From positions 384,219 to 448,218 of the forward strand of contig DASZZP010000083.1 of NCBI GenBank assembly GCA_035544875.1: a stretch of 64,000 nucleotides of DNA, given 5' to 3'. Shown here piece by piece: positions 285-11,984 of this stretch (positions are counted from its first letter, which is position 1; the number at the start of each line of letters is the position of its first letter). This DNA comes from Thermoanaerobaculia bacterium. Its GTDB lineage: Bacteria > Acidobacteriota > Thermoanaerobaculia > Multivoradales > UBA5704. Under the pieces are notes generated by a model. That model made no database searches, was not told the origin of the DNA, and saw only the letters and a list, made by a program, of their open reading frames with translations. A program made the translations under genes and the position numbers.

Positions 285-764
285 ATGAGAATCCAGCAAC
301 GCACGCTCTTGATTGGCATGGCTCTCGGCCTCGCCTTCGCCGCCGCGTCCCCGGGCGGCGCTGCGGAACTGTCCGCCCCATCGCCGGCGGCTGGCCCGGC
401 CGAGGTTCTCTTCCCTTGCGTGGCCGATGACACGACCATGTGCCTTAATCATGGCCGCTTCCGGACCACGGCCAACTTCCGCACCAACGAAGGGGTGACG
501 GGGGGAGCTCACGCGGTACCCTTGACCGACGACACGGGTTACTTCTGGTTTTTCAGCTCCAGCAACGTGGAGATCATCGTCAAGGTGCTCAACGGCTGCG
601 GCGTCAACCAGCATTACTGGGTGTTTGCCGGCGGCCTGACCAACGTCAACGTGATCATGAGAGTTGCCGATACGACGAACGAAGGGTTCACGCAGTACGA
701 CAACCGGCCGAATACGCCTTACCAGCCGGTGCAGGACACAACGGCTTTCCCCAACTGTCCCTAG
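285..764 (+). CDS. hypothetical secreted protein (159 aa) with N-terminal signal peptide
   Basis: ATG at 285. N-terminus MRIQQRTLLIGMALGLAFAAASPGGAA resembles a Sec signal peptide. Mature part is Thr/Asn-rich with 4 Cys. Composition is protein-like, unlike the overlapping antisense ORF 30..614. Confidence 0.45.
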   Translation: MRIQQRTLLIGMALGLAFAAASPGGAAELSAPSPAAGPAEVLFPCVADDTTMCLNHGRFRTTANFRTNEGVTGGAHAVPLTDDTGYFWFFSSSNVEIIVKVLNGCGVNQHYWVFAGGLTNVNVIMRVADTTNEGFTQYDNRPNTPYQPVQDTTAFPNCP

Positions 765-1185: not shown

Positions 1186-2013
1186 ATGAGCCAGGATATT
1201 TCCCGACGGGGTTTCGTGCGGCAGTCGCTCGGATGGACCGCGTCTCTGGTCTGGGGTCTCGACGCTTTCCAGGCGCTGGCCCAGAACGCGGTCGCACTCC
1301 TCAACTACCAAGGTCGCCTGACCGACGCCGCCGGTCTGCCGCGCACCGGCAGCGCCGCCATGACGTTTCGCATCGTCGACGCGGCTGGCAACCCGCTCGG
1401 CTGGGCGGAGACGCATCCGGCAGTACCGCTCGACAACGGCTTCTTCTCGGTGCAGCTCGGCAGCATCACGCCGCTGACGCCCGCGCTCTTCGCCGGCCCA
1501 CCCACCGACTCGTTCGGTCCCGTTCGCCACCTCGAGGTGACCATCGACGGGGAGACGCTGTTGCCCAACCTGCGCATCACGAGCGCCGCGTGGGCCATCG
1601 GCACCGTGGTTGGAGCCACCGGGCCAGCGGGGCCAAGTGGCACCGCCGGGGTGACGGGACCGACGGGGCCGATAGGCGCCACCGGTGCCGGACCCACCGG
1701 TGCCACGGGCCTGGGCGGAGCGACCGGACCGACAGGATCCTCGGGACCCGCCGGCGCCAGCGGACCGACCGGACCGAGCGGTTCGAGCGGCGCTCAAGGA
1801 CCCACCGGGCCCGCCGGGTCGACGGGACCCACCGGGCCGCAGGGCGCGTCGGGAGCCGCCGGAGCCTCCGGAGGTACCGGCCCCACCGGGCCGCAGGGCA
1901 CCTCCGGAACGACCGGTTCGACCGGTCCACAAGGGTCTACCGGGCCAACGGGCCCGATCGGATCGACCGGGCCGGGGTTTGGCGCCACGGGAGCCACCGG
2001 ACCGGGTCCCTAG
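1186..2013 (+). CDS. collagen-like triple-helix repeat protein with twin-arginine-type signal (275 aa)
   Basis: GGAGGAG SD at 1170-1176 and ATG at 1186. N-terminus [24 protein letters not shown] is a Tat-like RRxFV motif. The C-terminal ~150 aa are uninterrupted Gly-X-Y triplets (GPTGP, GATGP, GSTGP and similar). Confidence 0.75.
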
Positions 2014-2047: not shown

Positions 2048-2734
2048 ATGGGTGGCCTGCCAGCAGCCCTGGGTGTTTTCACCCTGATGGCAGGCTTCGG
2101 CTCTCGCGGGCTCCTCGCGCAGAACGTCGTCGTCGAGACCCCCGCACTCACCTCGGGCGGCGGCCTCGCCACCTCGGCCAGCCATCGGCTCTGGAGCTGC
2201 CTCTCCCACGACCCCTCGGGCACGGCGGCGAGCTCCTCGTTCCGCGTACGCGTGGGTTGCGGCGCGGCGCTGGCTGGCGGCGTCATCGTCACCAAGGCGC
2301 CCACCAGCCTCTCCGCCCAAGCGACCCCGTCGTCGGCCCCGGTCGGCGGGAGCATCGCCGATCAAGCCACGCTCTCGGGCGGCGATCGACCCACCGGCAC
2401 GATCACCTTCAACCTCTTCGCCCCTGGCGACACGGGCTGCGCGAGCTCGATCTTCACCTCGACGAAGTCCGTGAGCGGCGATGGCACCTACACCTCCGAC
2501 TCCTTCGCGGCTTTGACTCCAGGCACCTACCGGTGGATCGCGAGCTATAGCGGCGACGCCAACAACCTCGCGGCTGGGCCGACCGTGTGCAGCGATCCGG
2601 TGCAGGCGGCCGTCGTCACTGGGTTCACCGCGGCGATTCCGACGCTCGATCCCCGCGGCCTGGCTCTGCTCGTCCTGCTGCTGGCCGCGGCCGGGCTTCT
2701 CATCGCACGTCGCGCGCCGCTGCCGCCGCGGTGA
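2048..2734 (+). CDS. cell-surface protein with C-terminal IPTL-CTERM sorting domain (228 aa)
   Basis: ATG at 2048, in frame with ORF 1685..2734. N-terminal hydrophobic signal (MGGLPAALGVFTLMAGFGSRGLLAQ). Ser/Thr/Gly-rich body. C-terminus ...AAIPTLDPRGLALLVLLLAAAGLLIARRAPLPPR has an IPTL motif, a TM helix and a basic tail, which is the IPTL-CTERM architecture (TIGR04174-like). Confidence 0.65.
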   Translation: MGGLPAALGVFTLMAGFGSRGLLAQNVVVETPALTSGGGLATSASHRLWSCLSHDPSGTAASSSFRVRVGCGAALAGGVIVTKAPTSLSAQATPSSAPVGGSIADQATLSGGDRPTGTITFNLFAPGDTGCASSIFTSTKSVSGDGTYTSDSFAALTPGTYRWIASYSGDANNLAAGPTVCSDPVQAAVVTGFTAAIPTLDPRGLALLVLLLAAAGLLIARRAPLPPR

Positions 2735-2748
2735 GCCCCGCCGCCAGC

Positions 2749-5700
2749 ATGCCGCGAACAGCCCAGCCTGGCGACCGGCGGCCGACGATCTGCCTGTCGA
2801 TGATCGTGCGCGACGAGGCGCACATCGTCACCGAGGCGCTCGCCTGCCTGGCGCCTCATCTCGACTATTGGGTCGTGGTCGACACCGGCTCGACCGACGC
2901 CACCCGTGACGTGGTGCGCGACTTCTTCGGCGACCGCGGCATCCCCGGCGAGCTCCACGAGCGCCCCTGGCGCGACTTCGGTGCCAACCGCACCGAGGCG
3001 CTCGAGCTGGCGCGCGGCAAGGCCGACTATCTATGGGTCTTCGACGCCGACGACCTGCTGCGCGGCACGCCCGACCTCACCGAGCTCACCCACGACGCCT
3101 ACTCTCTGCGCTTCGACGGCGACCTGCGCTACTGGCGTCCCTTGCTGTTCCGCTCCGACCGCGCCTGGCGCTTCGTCGGCGAGCTGCACGAGTACGCCCA
3201 GTGCGCCGATGGGCCGGCGACCATCGCCAGGCTCGCCGGGGATCACGCGGCCGAGTCGCGCCGGCTCGGCGCGCGCAACCGGCCGGCGGACAAGTACGAT
3301 CGCGACGCCGCGGTGTTCGCCGCCGCGGTGGCGCGCGACCCCAACGACACCCGCAGCCTCTTCTACCTCGCGCAGAGCCACCAGGACGCCGGGCGGCTGC
3401 GCGAGGCGCGGGCCCTCTACGAACGACGCGCCGCCCTCGGCGGCTGGGGCGAGGAGGTCTACGTCGCCCTGCTGCGCGCCGCGCGCTGCCGGCGCGACCT
3501 CGGCCGGCCGTGGCCGCAGCTTCTGCCGGCGTTCCTCGCTGCCTGGTCGGCGCGCCCGACGCGCGCCGAGGCGCTGGTCGACCTGGCCGCCGTCGCCCGA
3601 CTCGCCGGGCGCTGGCCGGAGGCGCACCTGTTCGCCAGCCGGGCGGCGGCGATTCCGGATCCGGTCGACGACGAGCTGTTCGTCGAGCCGGCCGCCTATG
3701 CCTGGCGGGCCCTCGACGAGCTGGCGATCGCCGCGTACTACCTCGGCGACCTCGAGGAGTCGTTCCGCATCAACAGCGAGCTGCTGGCCCGCTCGCGGCT
3801 GCCCGAGCGCGAGCGCGGGCGCATCGAGAGCAACCGCGACTTCTCGGTGCCGCGGGTCAAGGACTCCAGGCTGCAGCACGACGCGGCGATCGTTAGGCGC
3901 ATCCTGGCGCGGTCGCGCGCGACCGCTCCTCGGGTCACCCTCACCATCACCAGCTGCCGGCGGCGGGACCTCTTCGAGAAGACGGTGTGCTCTTTCCTCA
4001 ACGCCTGTACCGACCTCGACCTGATCGACCGCTGGCTCTGCGTCGACGACGGCTCGAGCCCCGAAGACCGCCGCGAGATGCAGCGGCTCTTCCCCTTCTT
4101 CGAGTACGTCTGGAAGGGACCCGAGGAGCGCGGCCACGCGCGCAGCATGAACATCATCCGCGGCGCCGTGCGTACCCCCTTCCTCGTCCACCTCGAGGAC
4201 GATTGGCATTTCTTCGAGCGCCGCGACTACGTCGGGCCGGCGATCCGCATCCTCGAACGCGAGCCCGAGCTCGGCCAGGTCCTCTTCAACCGCAACTACG
4301 CCGAGGTGCTCGCGGACCGCGACATTCCCGGCGGGCAGCTGCGGGTGTCGCCGGCGGGCGATCGCTACGTCGTGCACGAGCACCACGACCCGGGCTCGGA
4401 GTTGTATCGCCGCCTGGCGGAGGTCCATCGGCGGCCCTCCAACGTCTACTGGCCCCACTACTCGCTCCGCCCCTCGCTGCTGCGCGCCACCGTCTTCGAG
4501 CGGGTGGGCCCCTTCGACGAGCAAGCCTCCCACTTCGAGCTCGACTACGCGCGCCGCTACGTCCACGCGCGCCTCTCCTCGGCCTTCTTCGACGGCGTCA
4601 ACTGCCTGCACATCGGCAGGCTCACCAGCGAGCGCGACGATACGGCAAAGCCGAATGCCTACGGGCTCAACGGCATGCCACGGTTCGACGACCGGCCGAT
4701 ACGCGTGCAGCTGCTCGCCAACTGGTGCACCAGCGAAGAGCTCTGCCGCATGTGGGAGAAGATGTCGCGCGGCGGCGGCCGCTGGGGACGGCTGGAGGTC
4801 ACGGCCGGCGGCGATGTCGACTTCCATGCGGTGATCAACGCCGCGCCGCCCGGGGCCGCGGTCGACCCGGCGCGGACGATCGTCTTCCACATGGAGCCGC
4901 GCAGCACCATCGCATCGATGCCCGCCGAGTGGCGCGATCCGGATCCGGCGCGTTTCCTCCAGGTGCGCAGCCACGCCGCCTTCCCCAACGTCTGCGAGTG
5001 GCACCTCGGTCCGACCTACGACGAGCTCTGCGCGCTGCCGATCGAGAAGACCCGGACCCTCTCCACCGTCACCTCCTCGCTCCACTTCTGTCCCGGCCAT
5101 CGGGCACGGATCGCCTTCATCAAGCACCTCGAGGCGAACGGCGTGCCGATCGACGTCTACGGCTGGAGCAACCATCACGGCTTCGCCGGTTACCGCGGAG
5201 CGTTGCCGCGGATGTGCAAGGACGCGGGCCTGTTCCCCTATCGCTACACCTTCGCAGCGGAGAACCACTGGGAAAGGAACTACTTCACCGAGAAGATCGT
5301 CGACGCGATCCTCGCCGAGTGCCTCTGCTTCTACTCGGGTTGCCCGAACCTCGCCGGCCACCTCGACCCGGCGGCCTACGTGGCCCTCGACCTCGACGAC
5401 TTCGCAGCGGCGGCCCGCACCATCGAGACGACGATCGCCAACGGCGAGTGGGAGAAGCGGCTCGACGCCATCCGGCGCGAAAAGCGGCGGATCCTCGACC
5501 AGCTCCAGTTCTTCCCCACTTTGGAGCGGATCGTCGTCGCGGCGCAGGCGGGGATGCCGTTGCCGACGTGCGACGCCGAGGATCTGGACGTCGTCCTGAT
5601 CAACCTCGATCGCCGGCCCGATCGCCTCGCCGCGTTTCGCGCGCAGGCGGAGCGCAGCGGGCTCTCCTACCGGCGGGTCGCAGCGGTCGACGGTCAGGCC

Positions 5701-6246
5701 ATCGCGCTCACCGCCGAGATCCGCCAGCTCTTCCGCGACAACGACTTCGGCTACCGCCGCAGCGTCGTCGGCTGCGCCCTCAGTCACCTCGGCGTCTGGC
5801 GAGCGGTCCGCCGGCCGACGCTGGTGCTCGAAGACGACGTCGAGCTCGCGGAGGCCTTCGTCCCGGGCCTGCGCTCGATCCTGGAGCAGGCCCGCAGCAC
5901 CGACCCTGACTGGGACCTCGTCTTCCTCGGGTACACCCCCTGGGAGGCACGCTTCGCCGAGCCGCCGCGCGAAGGGGGCGATCCGCGCCTGCAGCCCATG
6001 GGCTGGCTCGACTACATGGGCGGCTTGTTCGGCTACCTGGTGTCGCCCGCGGGAGCGCGCAAGCTGGTCGACCAGGCCACCACCGGCGGCATCCGCCACG
6101 GCATCGACCGCTTCGTCCATCACTCCGACCGCGGGCTGCGGGTCTACAGCGCCCTGCCGAGCATCGCGTTCTCGCCGTGCGCCCGGCTCGACGGCCAGGG
6201 CGACACCGACATCCAGCGCGACTTCACCCCGCTCGCGCCGGACTGA
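2749..6246 (+). CDS. multidomain glycosyltransferase (1166 aa): GT2 - TPR-like - GT2 - GT10-like (alpha-1,3-fucosyltransferase motif) - GT25-like
   Basis: ATG at 2749, in frame with ORF 2587..6246. GT2 signatures: ICLSMIVRDEAHIV...VVDTGSTD...DADD, and a second one VTLTITSCRRRDLFEKT...CVDDGSSPED. FucT-type motif YTFAAENHWERNYFTEKIVDA (FENS...Y.TEK). GT25-like C-terminus VVLINLDRRPDRLAAFRAQ...VVGCALSHLGVW...LEDD. TPR-like Ala/Leu-rich region lies between the first two modules. Confidence 0.8.
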   Translation: MPRTAQPGDRRPTICLSMIVRDEAHIVTEALACLAPHLDYWVVVDTGSTDATRDVVRDFFGDRGIPGELHERPWRDFGANRTEALELARGKADYLWVFDADDLLRGTPDLTELTHDAYSLRFDGDLRYWRPLLFRSDRAWRFVGELHEYAQCADGPATIARLAGDHAAESRRLGARNRPADKYDRDAAVFAAAVARDPNDTRSLFYLAQSHQDAGRLREARALYERRAALGGWGEEVYVALLRAARCRRDLGRPWPQLLPAFLAAWSARPTRAEALVDLAAVARLAGRWPEAHLFASRAAAIPDPVDDELFVEPAAYAWRALDELAIAAYYLGDLEESFRINSELLARSRLPERERGRIESNRDFSVPRVKDSRLQHDAAIVRRILARSRATAPRVTLTITSCRRRDLFEKTVCSFLNACTDLDLIDRWLCVDDGSSPEDRREMQRLFPFFEYVWKGPEERGHARSMNIIRGAVRTPFLVHLEDDWHFFERRDYVGPAIRILEREPELGQVLFNRNYAEVLADRDIPGGQLRVSPAGDRYVVHEHHDPGSELYRRLAEVHRRPSNVYWPHYSLRPSLLRATVFERVGPFDEQASHFELDYARRYVHARLSSAFFDGVNCLHIGRLTSERDDTAKPNAYGLNGMPRFDDRPIRVQLLANWCTSEELCRMWEKMSRGGGRWGRLEVTAGGDVDFHAVINAAPPGAAVDPARTIVFHMEPRSTIASMPAEWRDPDPARFLQVRSHAAFPNVCEWHLGPTYDELCALPIEKTRTLSTVTSSLHFCPGHRARIAFIKHLEANGVPIDVYGWSNHHGFAGYRGALPRMCKDAGLFPYRYTFAAENHWERNYFTEKIVDAILAECLCFYSGCPNLAGHLDPAAYVALDLDDFAAAARTIETTIANGEWEKRLDAIRREKRRILDQLQFFPTLERIVVAAQAGMPLPTCDAEDLDVVLINLDRRPDRLAAFRAQAERSGLSYRRVAAVDGQAIALTAEIRQLFRDNDFGYRRSVVGCALSHLGVWRAVRRPTLVLEDDVELAEAFVPGLRSILEQARSTDPDWDLVFLGYTPWEARFAEPPREGGDPRLQPMGWLDYMGGLFGYLVSPAGARKLVDQATTGGIRHGIDRFVHHSDRGLRVYSALPSIAFSPCARLDGQGDTDIQRDFTPLAPD

Positions 6247-6270: not shown

Positions 6271-8802
6271 TCAGGTCGCGAAGGCCATCGCCAGCAGCGT
6301 CGCCTGCTCCAGGGCGTGGGCCTTGGCCGAGCCGGTGGCGGGGCTGCCGGCGGCGTGCCGGCGGACCGAGCGCACCGGGTGGCCGGCCAGGCGCTCGAGC
6401 CGCGGATGGACATAGAACAGGGCACCCATGTTGGCCGGCTCCTCCTGCACCCAGACGAGATCGTGGCAGGCGGGATGGCGGGCCAGCTCGGCGGCGATTT
6501 CACTCTTCGGGAACGGGTAGAGCTGGTCGATGGCGATGATTGCCGTCGTCGTCGCGGTCGCTGTCGTGGCAGCGGTCGCCGTGGTCGCCGCGCCAGCCGG
6601 GCCGCGCCGCCGCGCCCGCTCCCGGCGCAGCTCGTGGGCGATCTTGCCGCTGCAGAACAGCAGCCGCTGCGCGTTTTCCACCGCGGGGTCCGGGATGACG
6701 TTCAGGAAACGCTCGCGGCTGAGCTCTGCGAGCGGCGACGACGAATCGCGGTGGCGCAGCATGCTCTTGGGCGTCATCACCACCAGTGGCTTGCGCCAGG
6801 GGCGCAGCGCCTGCCGCCGCAGGAGGTGGAAGTACTGCGCCGCGGTCGACGGCTGGCAGACCTGGATGTTGTCCTCGGCGGCGAGCTGCAGGAAGCGCTC
6901 GAGGCGCGCGCTGGAATGCTCCGGGCCCTGGCCTTCGTAGCCGTGCGGGAGGAGCAGGACCAGCCCCGAGAGCAGGTTCCACTTGCCCTCGCTGGCGGCG
7001 ATGAACTGGTCGATGATGATCTGCGCGCCGTTGGCGAAATCGCCGAACTGCGCCTCCCAGAGGACCAGGGCGTCAGGGTAATCGCGGCTGTAGCCGTACT
7101 CGAAACCGAGCACCGCCGCCTCCGAGAGCATCGAATCGTAGATCTCGAAGCGCGCCTGGCCGGCGGCCACGTGCGCGAGCGGCGTGTGCTCGCCGCCGGT
7201 CTCGACGTCGATCAGCACGGCGTGGCGCTGGGCGAAGGTGCCGCGCCGGGTGTCCTGCCCGCTCATCCGCACCGGCACCCCCTGGCGGACCAGCGAGGCG
7301 AAGGCCAGCGCCTCGGCCATGCCATAGTCGAGCGGCCGCTTGCCGTGCCCCATCTCGGCGCGCTCCGCGAGCAGGGCCTTGATCTTCTTGTGCACCGCGA
7401 AGCTCTGCGGCCAGCTGGTCAGCGGCGCGGTCAGCTCGCCGAGCGTCTCGGCAGGCAGGCCGGTCGCGACCTCGTACTCGGGTTTGAACGGACCCCCCTT
7501 ATAGGGGTCCCAGTACGCCGGCAGGGTGCGCAGCGACGCGCGCTTCTCGAGCCCCTTGGCCTCGCCCTGGGCGGCGTCGAGCTCGGCGCGCACCACCGCC
7601 TCGCGCCGCTCGGCCTCGTCGTCGGCCAGGCCGATCCGCTGGGCGTAGATCTTCCACAGCGGCGGATGCGCCTCGATCTTCTTGTAGAGCAGCGGCTGGG
7701 TGATGGTCGGATCGTCGACTTCGCTGTGGCCGTAGCGGCGGAAGCCGATCAGATCGACGACCACGTCGGAATGAAAGGCGTAGCGGTAATCGACCGCCAT
7801 CGCCGCCACCCGCGCCACCGCCTCCGGGTCCTCGGCGTTGACGTGAAAGATGGGGATCGGCAGGCGCTTGGCGATGTCGGAGGCGAAGCGCGAGGATTGC
7901 AGGCTCGCCGGCTCGGTGGTGAAGCCGATCATGTTGTTGACGATGACGTGCACGGTGCCGCCGACCCGGTAGCCGGGGAGCTCGGCCAGGTTGAGCGTCT
8001 CGGCCAGCACCCCCTGGCCGGCGAAGGCGGCGTCGCCGTGCAGCACGATCGGCATCACCAGGGTGCGGTCGCGGTCGCCGAGCCGCACCTGCTTGGCGCG
8101 CACGCGGCCGACCGCCACCGGGTCGACGGCTTCGAGATGGCTCGGGTTCGACACCAGGTGGAGGTCGATCTCGCGGCCGTTTCGCGCCCTGAAGGTGCCG
8201 GTCGCGCCCATGTGATACTTGACGTCGCCGCCCCCCAGCACGCTGCGCGGATCGACGTCCTCGAAGCCGGCGAAGATCTGCGCCGCCGGGCGCCCGACGA
8301 CGTTGACCATCACCGCGAGCCGGCCGCGGTGGCTCATCGCCAGCACCACCTGTCTGGCCTCGTGCGCCGCGGCGCTCTCGAGCATCTCGGTGAGCAGCGG
8401 GATGAGCGCAACGACGCCCTCGATCGAGAACCGCTTGCTCCCCAGGTAACGCGTCTGGACCAGGGTCTCGAAGGTCTCGGCGCGCAGGATCTCATCGAAG
8501 ATACGCTGCCGGTCCGGCTCTCCTGGCGCCGGCGCCTCCATGCGCTCGCCGAGCCAGCGCCGCCGCTCGGCGGCCGGGATGTGCATGAACTCGACGCCGA
8601 TCGTTCCGCAGTAGACCCGGCGGGCGAAGGCCGCGGTCTCCGCGTCGGCCAGCTCGGCGAGCGCCGGCTGCGGCTCGGCGGCGAGCCGGCGCAGCGGATC
8701 GAGGTCGGCCTGCAGGAAGCCCAACCGGCGAAAGGCGTTCAGCGTCTTCTGATCGAGCTTGCCGCGGGGCTCCGCGACGGCGGTGGCGATCTCGGTGGTC
8801 AT
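6271..8802 (-). CDS. sucA: 2-oxoglutarate dehydrogenase E1 component
   Basis: Start MTTEIATAV is the revcomp of cat at 8800-8802. ORF 6271..9327 shows strong OGDH E1 similarity throughout (ThDP-binding GDAAFAGQG, transketolase-like C-terminus). The upstream in-frame extension is non-coding because it runs into the intergenic repeat. Confidence 0.9.
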   Translation of the reverse strand: MTTEIATAVAEPRGKLDQKTLNAFRRLGFLQADLDPLRRLAAEPQPALAELADAETAAFARRVYCGTIGVEFMHIPAAERRRWLGERMEAPAPGEPDRQRIFDEILRAETFETLVQTRYLGSKRFSIEGVVALIPLLTEMLESAAAHEARQVVLAMSHRGRLAVMVNVVGRPAAQIFAGFEDVDPRSVLGGGDVKYHMGATGTFRARNGREIDLHLVSNPSHLEAVDPVAVGRVRAKQVRLGDRDRTLVMPIVLHGDAAFAGQGVLAETLNLAELPGYRVGGTVHVIVNNMIGFTTEPASLQSSRFASDIAKRLPIPIFHVNAEDPEAVARVAAMAVDYRYAFHSDVVVDLIGFRRYGHSEVDDPTITQPLLYKKIEAHPPLWKIYAQRIGLADDEAERREAVVRAELDAAQGEAKGLEKRASLRTLPAYWDPYKGGPFKPEYEVATGLPAETLGELTAPLTSWPQSFAVHKKIKALLAERAEMGHGKRPLDYGMAEALAFASLVRQGVPVRMSGQDTRRGTFAQRHAVLIDVETGGEHTPLAHVAAGQARFEIYDSMLSEAAVLGFEYGYSRDYPDALVLWEAQFGDFANGAQIIIDQFIAASEGKWNLLSGLVLLLPHGYEGQGPEHSSARLERFLQLAAEDNIQVCQPSTAAQYFHLLRRQALRPWRKPLVVMTPKSMLRHRDSSSPLAELSRERFLNVIPDPAVENAQRLLFCSGKIAHELRRERARRRGPAGAATTATAATTATATTTAIIAIDQLYPFPKSEIAAELARHPACHDLVWVQEEPANMGALFYVHPRLERLAGHPVRSVRRHAAGSPATGSAKAHALEQATLLAMAFAT

Positions 8803-9039
8803 GGCGCGATCAGGATACCGCTTTCCGCTCCCCGGCCGCGACAGCGAGCGGCGCCAGACGCGGCAGATCTCTTGGACCGTCGCTGCGTATAGCAGGGTGG
8901 CCGCCGGCCGCCGCTCAAAGGGATGGGAGCCGATCCTCGCGGGCGCCGGGGAACTGGCCGATAATGCGCTGACCTCGCTGACCTCGACGACTTCGATGAC
9001 CTCCATCGGGGCCGATACCGGGGTCGAGGCGATCGCACT

Positions 9040-9175
9040 AAGGCGAAACTCCCCGAAGCAAGAGGGAGGGGGCGTCCCCTTCCCCCCCGGAGGGGTGGGA
9101 AGGGGATTGAGGGGTTGCGGGGGGCGATCCGATCGATGCTTCGAGCAGGCCTCCACCGCCGCATCGCAGCGGCGT
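9040..9175 (+). repeat. GC-rich intergenic repeat element, copy 1 (MITE/REP-like, contains CCCCTTCCCCC...GGGGAAGGGG hairpin)
   Basis: Near-identical sequence recurs at 29670-29815 (inverted), 35391-35457 (truncated) and 47940-48100. Shared core: GGGAGGGGGCGTCCCCTTCCCCCCCGG...GGGTTGCGGGGGGCGATCCGATCGATGCTTCGAG..GCCTC.ACCGCC.CATCGCAGC. Confidence 0.85.
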
Positions 9176-9272
9176 CTTATCCTTCGGGATCGTAACCGCC
9201 GGTGGGGACTAGATCGATTCAGACAGGGGAGCTGGCCGCCCCGCTCGGCCGCGCCCCGGAGGAAGCTTCGCC

Positions 9273-11984
9273 ATGACCGTGACCTCCGCCAAGTCCGCGC
9301 CCGCGCTGGCGCTCCTCGCCGCCACACTCTTGCTGGCGGCGGTGCCCGCGATCCTCGGGGGGCGCTCCGTGCTGGCTCTGCCGACGCCGGTCAACCTGGG
9401 ACCGTCGCCGTTCGAGCCGGCCTCGACGGGAGGCGCCGCGACGCTCGACCGGGCGCTCGCCAAGCTCTCGACCCACAAGCGGCTGCTGGTGATCGGCGCC
9501 CATCCCGACGACGAGGACACGTCGCTGCTGGCCCTGGTGGCGCGCGGCATGGGGGGTGAGGCCGCCTACCTTTCGCTCTCCCGCGGCGAGGGCGGGCAGG
9601 ACCTGATCGGGCCCGAGCTCGGGGTCGGGCTGGGGTTGATCCGCAGCCGCGAGTTGCTGGCCGCCCGCGCCATCGACGGCGGGCGCCAGTTCTTCAGCCG
9701 CGCCTACGACTTCGGCTTCACCATGTCGCTCGAGGAGACGCTCGGGCAGTGGCCGAAGGAGGTGCTGGTCGAGGATACGATCCGCGTCATGCGGCGCTTC
9801 AAGCCGCAGGTCGTGGTCTCGATCTTTCCGGGCGTGCCGGTCAAGACCCACGGCCAGCACCAGGCCTCCGGCATCGCGGCGTTCGCGGCCTTCCCGCTGG
9901 CCGGCGACGCCAGCGCCCTGCCGCAGCTGCGCGCCGAGGGGCTGGCGCCCTGGGCGCCGCAGGCGCTCTTCCGCAAGACCTGGTTCGACCCCCAGGCGAC
10001 GACGCTCAAGCTGCCGCTCGGCGGCATCGATCCGTGGAGCGGCAAGTCGGCCTTCCAGCTCGCCATGGCCAGCCGCGGCATGCACCGCTCGCAGGGCATG
10101 GGCTTGACGCAGGAGCTGGGGGCCAAGGACTCCGCGCTCGGCTGGGTCTCGGGCGGCGCCGGGGCGGCGGCGAAGGACCTCTTCGACGGCATCGACACCC
10201 ATCTGCGGGCGATCGCCCGGCCGCTCGCCGACCCGGTGCTGCGGTCGCGAGTAGCGGCGGAGCTCGAGGCCGTCGAGGGGCTCGCCGTGCGCGCCCGGGC
10301 GACGCTCAACCCGGAGCGGCCGGAGGCGCTGGTGCCCGACCTGGTGGAGGCCGTACGGCACCTGCGCGCCGCGGCGGCGCTGCTCGCGCCAGCGGGCGGG
10401 CGCCCCGACCAGAAGCCGGTGGCCGAGCTGATCGCCGAGAAGCTGGAGGTGGCCGAGATCGCCCTGGCCAGCGCCGCCGGCGTCGCGCTCGACGCCACGA
10501 CGCCGCGCGAGGCGCTGGTCGCCGGCGAGTCGTTCCCGGTCGCCGCGACCCTCTGGAACAGCGGCAGCCGGACGCTCGCCGCGGTCGCGGTCACCCTGGC
10601 CCCCGCGCCGGAGTGGCACGGCGAGCCGGTCGCCGGGGAGGCCAAGGAGCTGGCGCAGGGAGGGCTGCAGAAATGGGAGCTCAAGGCGGTGGTGCCGGCG
10701 GCGGCGCCGCCGACCATGCCCTATTTCCTGCGCCTGCCGCTCTCCGGCGGCCTCTACGACTGGAGTGCGGCGGCCGCCGGAGAGCGCGGCGAGCCGTTCG
10801 GGCCGCCGCCGCTGATCGCGCGCTTCAACTTCAGCCTCGACGGCGTCCCGGTCACCCTCGAGCGCGAGGTGGTGCATCTTCACCGCAACGAGGTGCTGGG
10901 GGAGGTCCGCCGGCCGCTGCGGGTGGTGCCGCTGGTCGAGGTGGCGGTCGCCGAGAGCGTGCAGATCTGGCCGCTCAGCCGGCATGAGCCGCGCGGCGTG
11001 CGAGTGGTGGTGACCTCGCACGCCAAGGCCGCTCTGCGCGGCCGCCTGGAAGTCGCCTCGGCGCCGGCCGCCGGCGGCGCGGCATGGCCCGCGGTGCCGC
11101 CCCGGTCGTTCGAGATCCCGGCTCCCGACCCCGCCGCCGACGAGGCGGAGGGCGAGCAGCTGGCGCTGCCCCTGACCCTGCAGCCGCCGGCTGCGCTGGC
11201 CCCGGGCCGCTACCCGCTGCGCCTGGCCGCGGTGCTCGAGGACGGCGCCCGTTTCGACCTCGCGGTGCCGGTCATCGACTATGCCCACATCCACCCGACC
11301 CCCAACCCGCGCCACGCGGCCGTCGAGGTCACCGCCACCGACCTCAAGCTGCCGCCGCTCGAGCGGGTCGGCTATGTGCGCGGCGTTTCCGACGAGGTGC
11401 CGGAGTTCTTGCGCCAGGCGGGAGTGCCGCTCGAGCTGCTCGGCCCGGGCGAGCTGGCGGGCGCCGATCTCACCCGCTACGACGCCATCGTGATCGGCAG
11501 CCGCGCCTACGAGAGCGAGCCGGCGCTGGCGCGCTTCAACCATCGCCTGCTCGACTACGTGCGGGGCGGCGGGCTGATGATCGTCCAGTACCAGCAGTAT
11601 GCCTTCATCGAGAGCGGCTTCGCGCCGTTCAAGCTCGAGATCGCCCGCCCGCACGACCGGGTGACCGATGAGACCGCCGCGGTCACCCTGCTCGACCTCG
11701 CCGACCCGGTGTTCAGCACGCCGAACAGGATCGCCGAAGCCGACTGGCAGGGTTGGGTGCAGGAGCGCGGCCTCTACTTCGCCCACAGCTGGGACCCGGC
11801 CTACAAGCCGCTCCTCGCCATGGCCGATCCCGGCGGGCCGCAGCAGCGCGGCGCGCTCCTGGCGGCGGCCTACGGCAAGGGCAAGTACGTCTACACCGGC
11901 CTCGCCCTCTTCCGCCAGCTCCCCGCCGGCGTGCCCGGCGCCTACCGCCTGTTCGCCAACCTGCTCGCGCTCGGGAGGAAGTAG
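9273..11984 (+). CDS. secreted PIG-L/LmbE-family N-acetylglucosaminyl deacetylase with large C-terminal extension (903 aa)
   Basis: GGAGGA SD precedes ATG 9273. Signal peptide present. PIG-L motif LLVIGAHPDDEDTSL plus downstream HGQHQASG. C-terminal ~200 aa (DAIVIGSRAYESEPAL...GGGLMIVQYQ) resemble a ThuA/class-I-glutamine-amidotransferase-like fold. Confidence 0.8.
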   Translation: MTVTSAKSAPALALLAATLLLAAVPAILGGRSVLALPTPVNLGPSPFEPASTGGAATLDRALAKLSTHKRLLVIGAHPDDEDTSLLALVARGMGGEAAYLSLSRGEGGQDLIGPELGVGLGLIRSRELLAARAIDGGRQFFSRAYDFGFTMSLEETLGQWPKEVLVEDTIRVMRRFKPQVVVSIFPGVPVKTHGQHQASGIAAFAAFPLAGDASALPQLRAEGLAPWAPQALFRKTWFDPQATTLKLPLGGIDPWSGKSAFQLAMASRGMHRSQGMGLTQELGAKDSALGWVSGGAGAAAKDLFDGIDTHLRAIARPLADPVLRSRVAAELEAVEGLAVRARATLNPERPEALVPDLVEAVRHLRAAAALLAPAGGRPDQKPVAELIAEKLEVAEIALASAAGVALDATTPREALVAGESFPVAATLWNSGSRTLAAVAVTLAPAPEWHGEPVAGEAKELAQGGLQKWELKAVVPAAAPPTMPYFLRLPLSGGLYDWSAAAAGERGEPFGPPPLIARFNFSLDGVPVTLEREVVHLHRNEVLGEVRRPLRVVPLVEVAVAESVQIWPLSRHEPRGVRVVVTSHAKAALRGRLEVASAPAAGGAAWPAVPPRSFEIPAPDPAADEAEGEQLALPLTLQPPAALAPGRYPLRLAAVLEDGARFDLAVPVIDYAHIHPTPNPRHAAVEVTATDLKLPPLERVGYVRGVSDEVPEFLRQAGVPLELLGPGELAGADLTRYDAIVIGSRAYESEPALARFNHRLLDYVRGGGLMIVQYQQYAFIESGFAPFKLEIARPHDRVTDETAAVTLLDLADPVFSTPNRIAEADWQGWVQERGLYFAHSWDPAYKPLLAMADPGGPQQRGALLAAAYGKGKYVYTGLALFRQLPAGVPGAYRLFANLLALGRK

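Follow-up and report, generated by a model that had tools for sequence, protein, structure and literature searches.

Does the small, probably secreted protein encoded near the start of this stretch of Thermoanaerobaculia DNA carry a genuine protein-sorting signal at its C-terminus, and if so, which enzyme would process it? The stretch, here called the window, is 64 kb long and was analyzed over its whole length. Its first-pass annotation had quoted the C-terminus ...TGFTAAIPTLDPRGLALLVLLLAAAGLLIARRAPLPPR as a tripartite sorting signal of the IPTL-CTERM type. The quotation is exact, and the segment is indeed a tripartite IPTL-CTERM-type signal whose match to the family model TIGR04174 is above the cutoff.

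The protein is 228 aa long and is encoded by the ORF at 2048..2734 on the + strand, which runs from ATG to TGA and has a GC fraction of 0.64/0.64/0.86 at the three codon positions. It is identical to GenBank HVT60217.1, a MAG protein from "Thermoanaerobaculia bacterium" that lies on a 503,154-bp contig and already bears the name "IPTL-CTERM sorting domain-containing protein". An identical copy is present on a 6.9-kb contig in the Logan assembly of run SRR12277194. The gene lies 2 kb from the window edge, and the Logan contig extends the upstream sequence by 479 nt, in which no further gene was found. The features of the gene are as follows.

2048..2734, + strand: IPTL-CTERM protein gene (ORF and translation; exact NCBI protein match HVT60217.1)
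2048..2122, + strand: probable Sec signal peptide, residues 1–25, MGGLPAALGVFTLMAGFGSRGLLAQ (sequence reading)
2123..2296, + strand: low-confidence Ser/Gly/Ala-rich segment, residues 26–83 (pLDDT; no family match)
2297..2620, + strand: single Ig-like beta-sandwich domain of the Big_3_5 type, residues 84–191 (PF16640, AlphaFold2, homologues)
2636..2659, + strand: signature motif IPTLDPRG, residues 197–204 (TIGR04174 match starts at 197; alignment with canonical tails)
2660..2707, + strand: hydrophobic membrane-spanning segment LALLVLLLAAAGLLIA, residues 205–220 (Kyte-Doolittle; AlphaFold2 helix)
2708..2734, + strand: basic cytoplasmic tail RRAPLPPR, residues 221–228, and TGA stop (sequence)

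The architecture is thus probably a signal peptide, a low-confidence segment of about 58 residues, one Ig domain and the IPTL-CTERM tag. The N-terminus is hydrophobic and, read by eye, ends in AQ-N. Counted from the annotated ATG, its n-region has no basic residue (again a reading of the sequence); an in-frame GTG at 2027 (2027–2029), 21 nt upstream, would prepend MLPRIAR (MLPRIARMGG...) and with it two Arg residues that would give the signal peptide a basic n-region, and the gene as annotated from the ATG may be too short. AlphaFold2, run with 33 homologues, gives the N-terminal region (1–68) pLDDT values below 50 at residues 1–54 and 56–68. Residues 26–83 have no Pfam or NCBIfam match and are not shared by the homologues. 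The Ig-like domain (84–191), in contrast to the less confident linker that bears the motif, is modeled as eight strands with pLDDT 94–98. It matches Pfam PF16640 (Big_3_5) over residues 92–175 with 32.1 bits, below the gathering score of 35.5, and this domain is common to the homologues of the protein. Foldseek comparison with the PDB returned only generic Ig, CARDB and CLIPPER adhesin-type folds.

The IPTL gene lies between two genes of the same orientation.

1186..2013, + strand: 275-aa collagen-like protein with a Tat-like N-terminus (Pfam Collagen 51.5 bits); ends 34 nt before the IPTL gene
2749/2800..6246, + strand: multi-domain glycosyltransferase of about 1150 aa with GT2, TPR, GT10 and GT25 (PF00535, PF00852, PF01755; Logan gene call)

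The collagen-like protein has about 45 Gly-X-Y triplets rich in GPT/GST behind the Tat-type N-terminus SRRGFVR, matches NCBIfam SclB, Lcl and Bdello_MAT_N (the last an N-terminal domain) weakly, and stops inside the repeat without a C-terminal domain or anchor. We considered and rejected the idea that it and the IPTL ORF are one frameshifted gene; the two occupy separate reading frames, the IPTL ORF begins with a start codon and a hydrophobic N-terminus of its own, and the same sequence is found in two independent assemblies. The glycosyltransferase may start at the ATG at 2749 or at 2800, 14–65 nt downstream of the IPTL gene, and its GT25 domain belongs to a family that includes collagen galactosyltransferases. 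No terminator-like site was found between the three genes, a scan that says little at 70% GC. The first-pass annotation had proposed these neighbours as possible linked cargo or modifiers, an idea that draws on their close same-strand spacing. The common strand, the short gaps, the missing anchor of the collagen-like protein and the GT25 domain would all suit a single module for a surface fibre, collagen-like and glycosylated, that the IPTL protein anchors or caps, and such a module would be compatible with processing by exosortase H as discussed below. On the other hand, the trio is seen in one genome only (the Logan contig repeats that sequence), the JGI metagenomes yielded no close homologue with context, and the terminator scan carries little weight, so we consider the module unlikely.

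What distinguishes the protein is its tag, the last 32 residues, which consist of IPTLDPRG, a hydrophobic helix and RRAPLPPR. The NCBIfam model TIGR04174 (IPTL_CTERM) matches residues 197–222 of the 228, at the extreme C-terminus, with 25.2 bits (cutoff 20.5; E = 1.5e-5). It is the best of the curated tag models for this tail and midcut-by-XrtH is the second; Pfam PF18203 gives 19.8 bits, just below its gathering score of 20.8. Strongly hydrophobic 19-residue windows (Kyte-Doolittle 1.6–2.2) occur only at residues 199–226 of the protein, AlphaFold2 predicts a helix at residues 202–221, and the basic residues of the tail are the RR at 221–222 and R228. A six-frame scan found this one IPTL tail in the whole window.

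The motif itself is divergent. The canonical form is IPTLSEW[AG], or IPTLxxWG; IPTLDPRG retains IPTL and the Gly at position 8 but has Arg rather than Trp at position 7, which is the sole oddity of the protein. Outside the window IPTLDPR was seen in only one other protein, P0002, which is encoded on a 1.2-kb contig (BLASTP, 66% identity over 58% of the query). One could therefore imagine that the tail is a mere C-terminal membrane anchor that resembles IPTL-CTERM, that the protein stays tethered unprocessed in the inner membrane, and that XrtH does not recognize the W-to-R variant. In keeping with this, the Trp of "IPTLxxWG" is absent, TIGR04174 gives 25 bits here against 38–44 for canonical tails, PF18203 is below threshold, the window contains only one such tail and only two proteins share the variant.

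The chance test speaks against a mere anchor. A tail HMM built without the query sequence and its two closest variants scores the IPTLDPRG tail at 19.6 bits, a value reached by 0 of 2000 full shuffles and, when the helix and basic tail were kept and only the motif region was shuffled, by 1 of 2000. The motif adds about 9 bits beyond what a generic helix-plus-basic tail earns with this HMM. Among 19,229 ORF C-termini from unrelated loci the tail ranks 45th, and all those above it are unmistakable IPTL tails. The Trp is also missing from other tails that the HMM matches (IPTLHTFA, IPTLSWNA and IPTLSFYA). In addition, many homologues have a canonical IPTLSEW tail at the corresponding position behind the same Ig domain, which marks the tag as inherited and not a chance resemblance. 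Given that the lineage, and probably this MAG, has exosortase H (below), we regard the plain anchor as quite unlikely, and we conclude that the tail is an IPTL-CTERM-type sorting signal, divergent but recognizable.

The first-pass annotation had also stated that the enzyme for IPTL-CTERM is unassigned in general. This is wrong; the family TIGR04177 is "exosortase H", and its matches carry the JGI product name "exosortase H (IPTLxxWG-CTERM-specific)". NCBIfam also contains families named "exosortase H-associated membrane protein" and "midcut-by-XrtH". We examined the genomic context of five homologues of the IPTL protein, three of which (on loci L002–L004) have canonical IPTL tails. In two of these three (homologues P0073 and P0062) xrtH is directly beside the IPTL-tail gene. 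The exosortase-family genes on L002 and L003 encode proteins of 169–173 aa that score 204.5 and 89.9 bits with TIGR04177 (cutoff 86), one of them is followed by a weak match to the XrtH-associated membrane protein, and the two enzymes have thousands of relatives.

A wider survey gave a quantitative confirmation of this pairing from public genomes. We scanned GTDB species-representative genomes with XrtH alignments and inspected ±10 kb around the best 80 of at least 432 xrtH loci. All of these best 80 are in Beta- or Gammaproteobacteria, and no Thermoanaerobaculia genome is among them. Exactly one IPTL-tail ORF lies beside xrtH in 30 of the 80; it mostly ends just upstream of xrtH on the same strand, the distance between the two is 13–975 bp in the 19 loci found by a strict pattern, and no IPTL tail was found elsewhere within ±10 kb of xrtH in those loci. 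The strong adjacency of xrtH and IPTL-tail genes thus backs the curated assignment of XrtH. The literature that we searched mentions IPTL-CTERM in a single paper and exosortase H (XrtH) just briefly in one preprint, and it contains no report of cleavage of any IPTL-CTERM protein by XrtH.

We also note that L002 has, in addition to an intact xrtH at 10539–11048, an XrtH-like fragment at 8854–9153 on the + strand (phmmer E = 4e-20) between tandem IPTL-CTERM/ice-binding-like genes; it is probably a pseudogene remnant or a duplication.

The window itself encodes no such enzyme, and here the first-pass annotation was right. Pfam scans of about 40 window ORFs found no exosortase, sortase, rhomboid or CPBP protease, and six-frame phmmer and hmmsearch searches of the window with XrtH sequences and profiles and with XrtH_assoc returned only noise (E ≥ 3.5). 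Every window ORF with at least three hydrophobic segments falls into some other family: there are transporters of the ABC and MFS types, an amino-acid permease, an aquaporin, NrfD, a Tim44-like protein and a PMT-type glycosyltransferase, and none is an exosortase. Enzymes of the PEP-CTERM/exosortase type each serve many substrates dispersed around the genome (bioRxiv 10.1101/2023.06.07.544157; PMC12188702), so absence from 64 kb is uninformative.

Exosortase H is present in the lineage. A search seeded with high-GC XrtH representatives, themselves above the TIGR04177 cutoff, found three proteins from Thermoanaerobaculia MAGs and three from other Acidobacteriota that GenBank names exosortase H. 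The Thermoanaerobaculia enzymes score 112–133 bits with TIGR04177 and are far below the cutoffs of the XrtX, XrtM, XrtA and XrtB models. One of them, HVT61013.1 (P0423; 193 aa; 133.4 bits against the cutoff of 86), retains Cys102 (CNG), Arg143 (NLVR) and His162 (SH) in motifs that are invariant in XrtH alignments. The accession numbers of this enzyme and of the IPTL protein HVT60217.1 differ by 796, both proteins have the label "MAG TPA: Thermoanaerobaculia bacterium", and an identical HVT61013.1 is present in the Logan assembly of run SRR12277194, which also contains the IPTL protein. These accessions, the label and the run lead us to conclude that the cognate XrtH is very probably HVT61013.1, encoded on a different, 32-kb contig of the MAG that contains the IPTL gene. 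Base composition is compatible with this and is not diagnostic (GC 66.6% for that contig and 70.3% for the window; tetranucleotide r = 0.94), since unrelated high-GC loci correlate equally well.

A 202-aa membrane ORF comes after the gene for HVT61013.1 and overlaps it; this ORF is homologous to ORFs that follow xrtH in other Thermoanaerobaculia and Acidobacteriota loci; among these homologues one matches XrtH_assoc weakly and another has a Pfam XrtH_assoc match. No IPTL tail adjoins xrtH in any of the seven Acidobacteriota-type loci inspected (L087, L089, L090, L092 and L173–L175), and the pairing of enzyme and substrate in this lineage consequently rests on homology, not context. A metagenome scan with the IPTL protein found only Big_3_5 relatives, with 35–58% identity over the Ig domain; nine of these have IPTL-type tails, and none of the relatives has IPTLDPR or a nearby xrtH.

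Other features of the Acidobacteriota-type loci are worth recording. In all seven, a membrane ORF of 181–231 aa (the XrtH-associated protein) comes after xrtH and either overlaps it or lies close by. In L087 (5371–11175) and L090 (2032–11030), rpmE (L31) and prfA (RF-1) precede xrtH by a few kb. The ORF after xrtH in L173 (10001–11210 on a 7.66-Mb contig, ENA ERZ25039594) is very near that of L089 (phmmer E = 1e-72), and this near-complete genome may be that of a close relative of the window's organism.

Taken with the tag, these findings make it likely that the product of 2048..2734 is a small cell-surface Ig-like protein and a substrate of an XrtH encoded elsewhere in the genome. It would be exported by Sec through its N-terminal signal peptide, and the C-terminal helix (205–220), whose anatomy is plain, would then hold it in the inner membrane, in a predicted topology with IPTLDPRG facing the periplasm and RRAPLPPR inside the cell. 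The enzyme XrtH, which is small and polytopic and has the conserved Cys, Arg and His of exosortases and archaeosortases, would recognize the motif, remove the helix and tail, and hand the mature protein to some acceptor so that it is displayed on the envelope. We infer these steps of recognition, cleavage and transfer from the homologous systems exosortase/PEP-CTERM and archaeosortase A/PGF-CTERM, and an enzyme that serves dispersed substrates would be expected to lie outside the window.

Processing by another enzyme of this organism, either an exosortase-family paralogue other than XrtH or an intramembrane protease of some other kind, with IPTLDPRG as a separate substrate class, would fit the great diversity of small exosortases (the XrtH profile at E ≤ 1e-3 finds 4840 clusters among 1.84 billion representatives and overlaps the XrtX, XrtM and ArtB models), the three of four positions after IPTL at which the motif differs and the lack of an adjacent enzyme-substrate pair in the Acidobacteriota loci, but the two top tag models for the tail are both tied to XrtH and the Thermoanaerobaculia enzymes clear the XrtH cutoff while staying far below those of XrtX, XrtM and the others, which makes such an enzyme improbable.

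Several known systems are close to that of the XrtH substrate proposed here. Like the members of the IPTL-CTERM/XrtH system (TIGR04174, TIGR04177, PF18203, NF041730/PF28117), it has the IPTL motif, a helix and an Arg cluster at the extreme C-terminus, its type of passenger, Big_3_5, is joined to canonical IPTL tails in other organisms, and its lineage, probably including its own MAG, has XrtH and the associated membrane protein. Unlike them, its motif is IPTLDPRG and not IPTLSEW[AG], its host belongs to the Acidobacteriota and not, as in the best 80 of at least 432 xrtH loci, to the Beta- or Gammaproteobacteria, and its gene is not adjacent to xrtH, whereas in 30 of the 80 proteobacterial loci xrtH is beside one substrate gene. 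The PEP-CTERM systems of XrtA, XrtB and the cyanoexosortases use enzymes of the same superfamily and, likewise in diderms, a C-terminal tag made up of a signature, a helix and a basic tail; they differ in having a PEP rather than an IPTL motif and larger enzymes (the XrtA and XrtB models have 261–268 positions, that of XrtH 158). PGF-CTERM/ArtA provides the mechanistic template, a homologous Cys/Arg/His membrane enzyme, although it is archaeal and has another motif and another acceptor chemistry. ArtA is the one member of the family that is known from experiment to cleave its tag (PGF-CTERM).

In the literature searched, the only experimentally studied IPTL-CTERM protein is mela_00855, the S-layer protein of Methylomirabilis lanthanidiphila, which has a signal peptide and a C-terminal IPTL-CTERM domain and is found at the cell surface (PMC8671808). 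Surface display of IPTL-CTERM proteins is consistent with this S-layer location. Like the window protein, which is probably secreted too, mela_00855 is a secreted IPTL-CTERM protein of a non-proteobacterial diderm; it forms an S-layer, whereas the window protein is a single Ig domain.

IPTL-CTERM is not an orphan signal, and the IPTL protein is an ordinary, small, probably secreted protein that belongs, as already annotated, to the known system of IPTL-CTERM and exosortase H. Curated entries exist for the tag, for its family model and for the enzyme family, and GenBank already names both the protein and its probable partner enzyme, so the overall importance of the locus is small. What it adds is that the system reaches the Acidobacteriota, there with a Trp-less variant of the motif. 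Any IPTL-CTERM protein is a candidate test substrate for the biochemistry of the XrtH pathway (cleavage site, acceptor and final location), and the window protein offers no special advantage over the others.

A more elaborate reading joins the tag to its neighbourhood. IPTLDPR[GS] would be a Trp-less IPTL subclass specific to the Thermoanaerobaculia, read by their divergent XrtH, and would tether a small Ig protein that is co-expressed with a Tat-exported collagen-like fibre lacking its own anchor and with a GT2/GT10/GT25 glycosyltransferase. We hold this to be improbable; if true, exosortase H would serve to anchor a surface module built on a collagen-like, glycosylated fibre.

Lastly, we note two features of the DNA on either side of these genes. 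The same-strand run begins with a gene at 285–764 (+ strand) for a 159-aa secreted-looking, Cys-containing protein that matches no Pfam or NCBIfam family. Beyond the glycosyltransferase, the – strand gene at 6271–9327, which encodes a homologue of 2-oxoglutarate dehydrogenase E1, contains at 6530–6640 an Ala/Thr low-complexity run, AATTATAATTATATTTAIIA, near its C-terminal domain.
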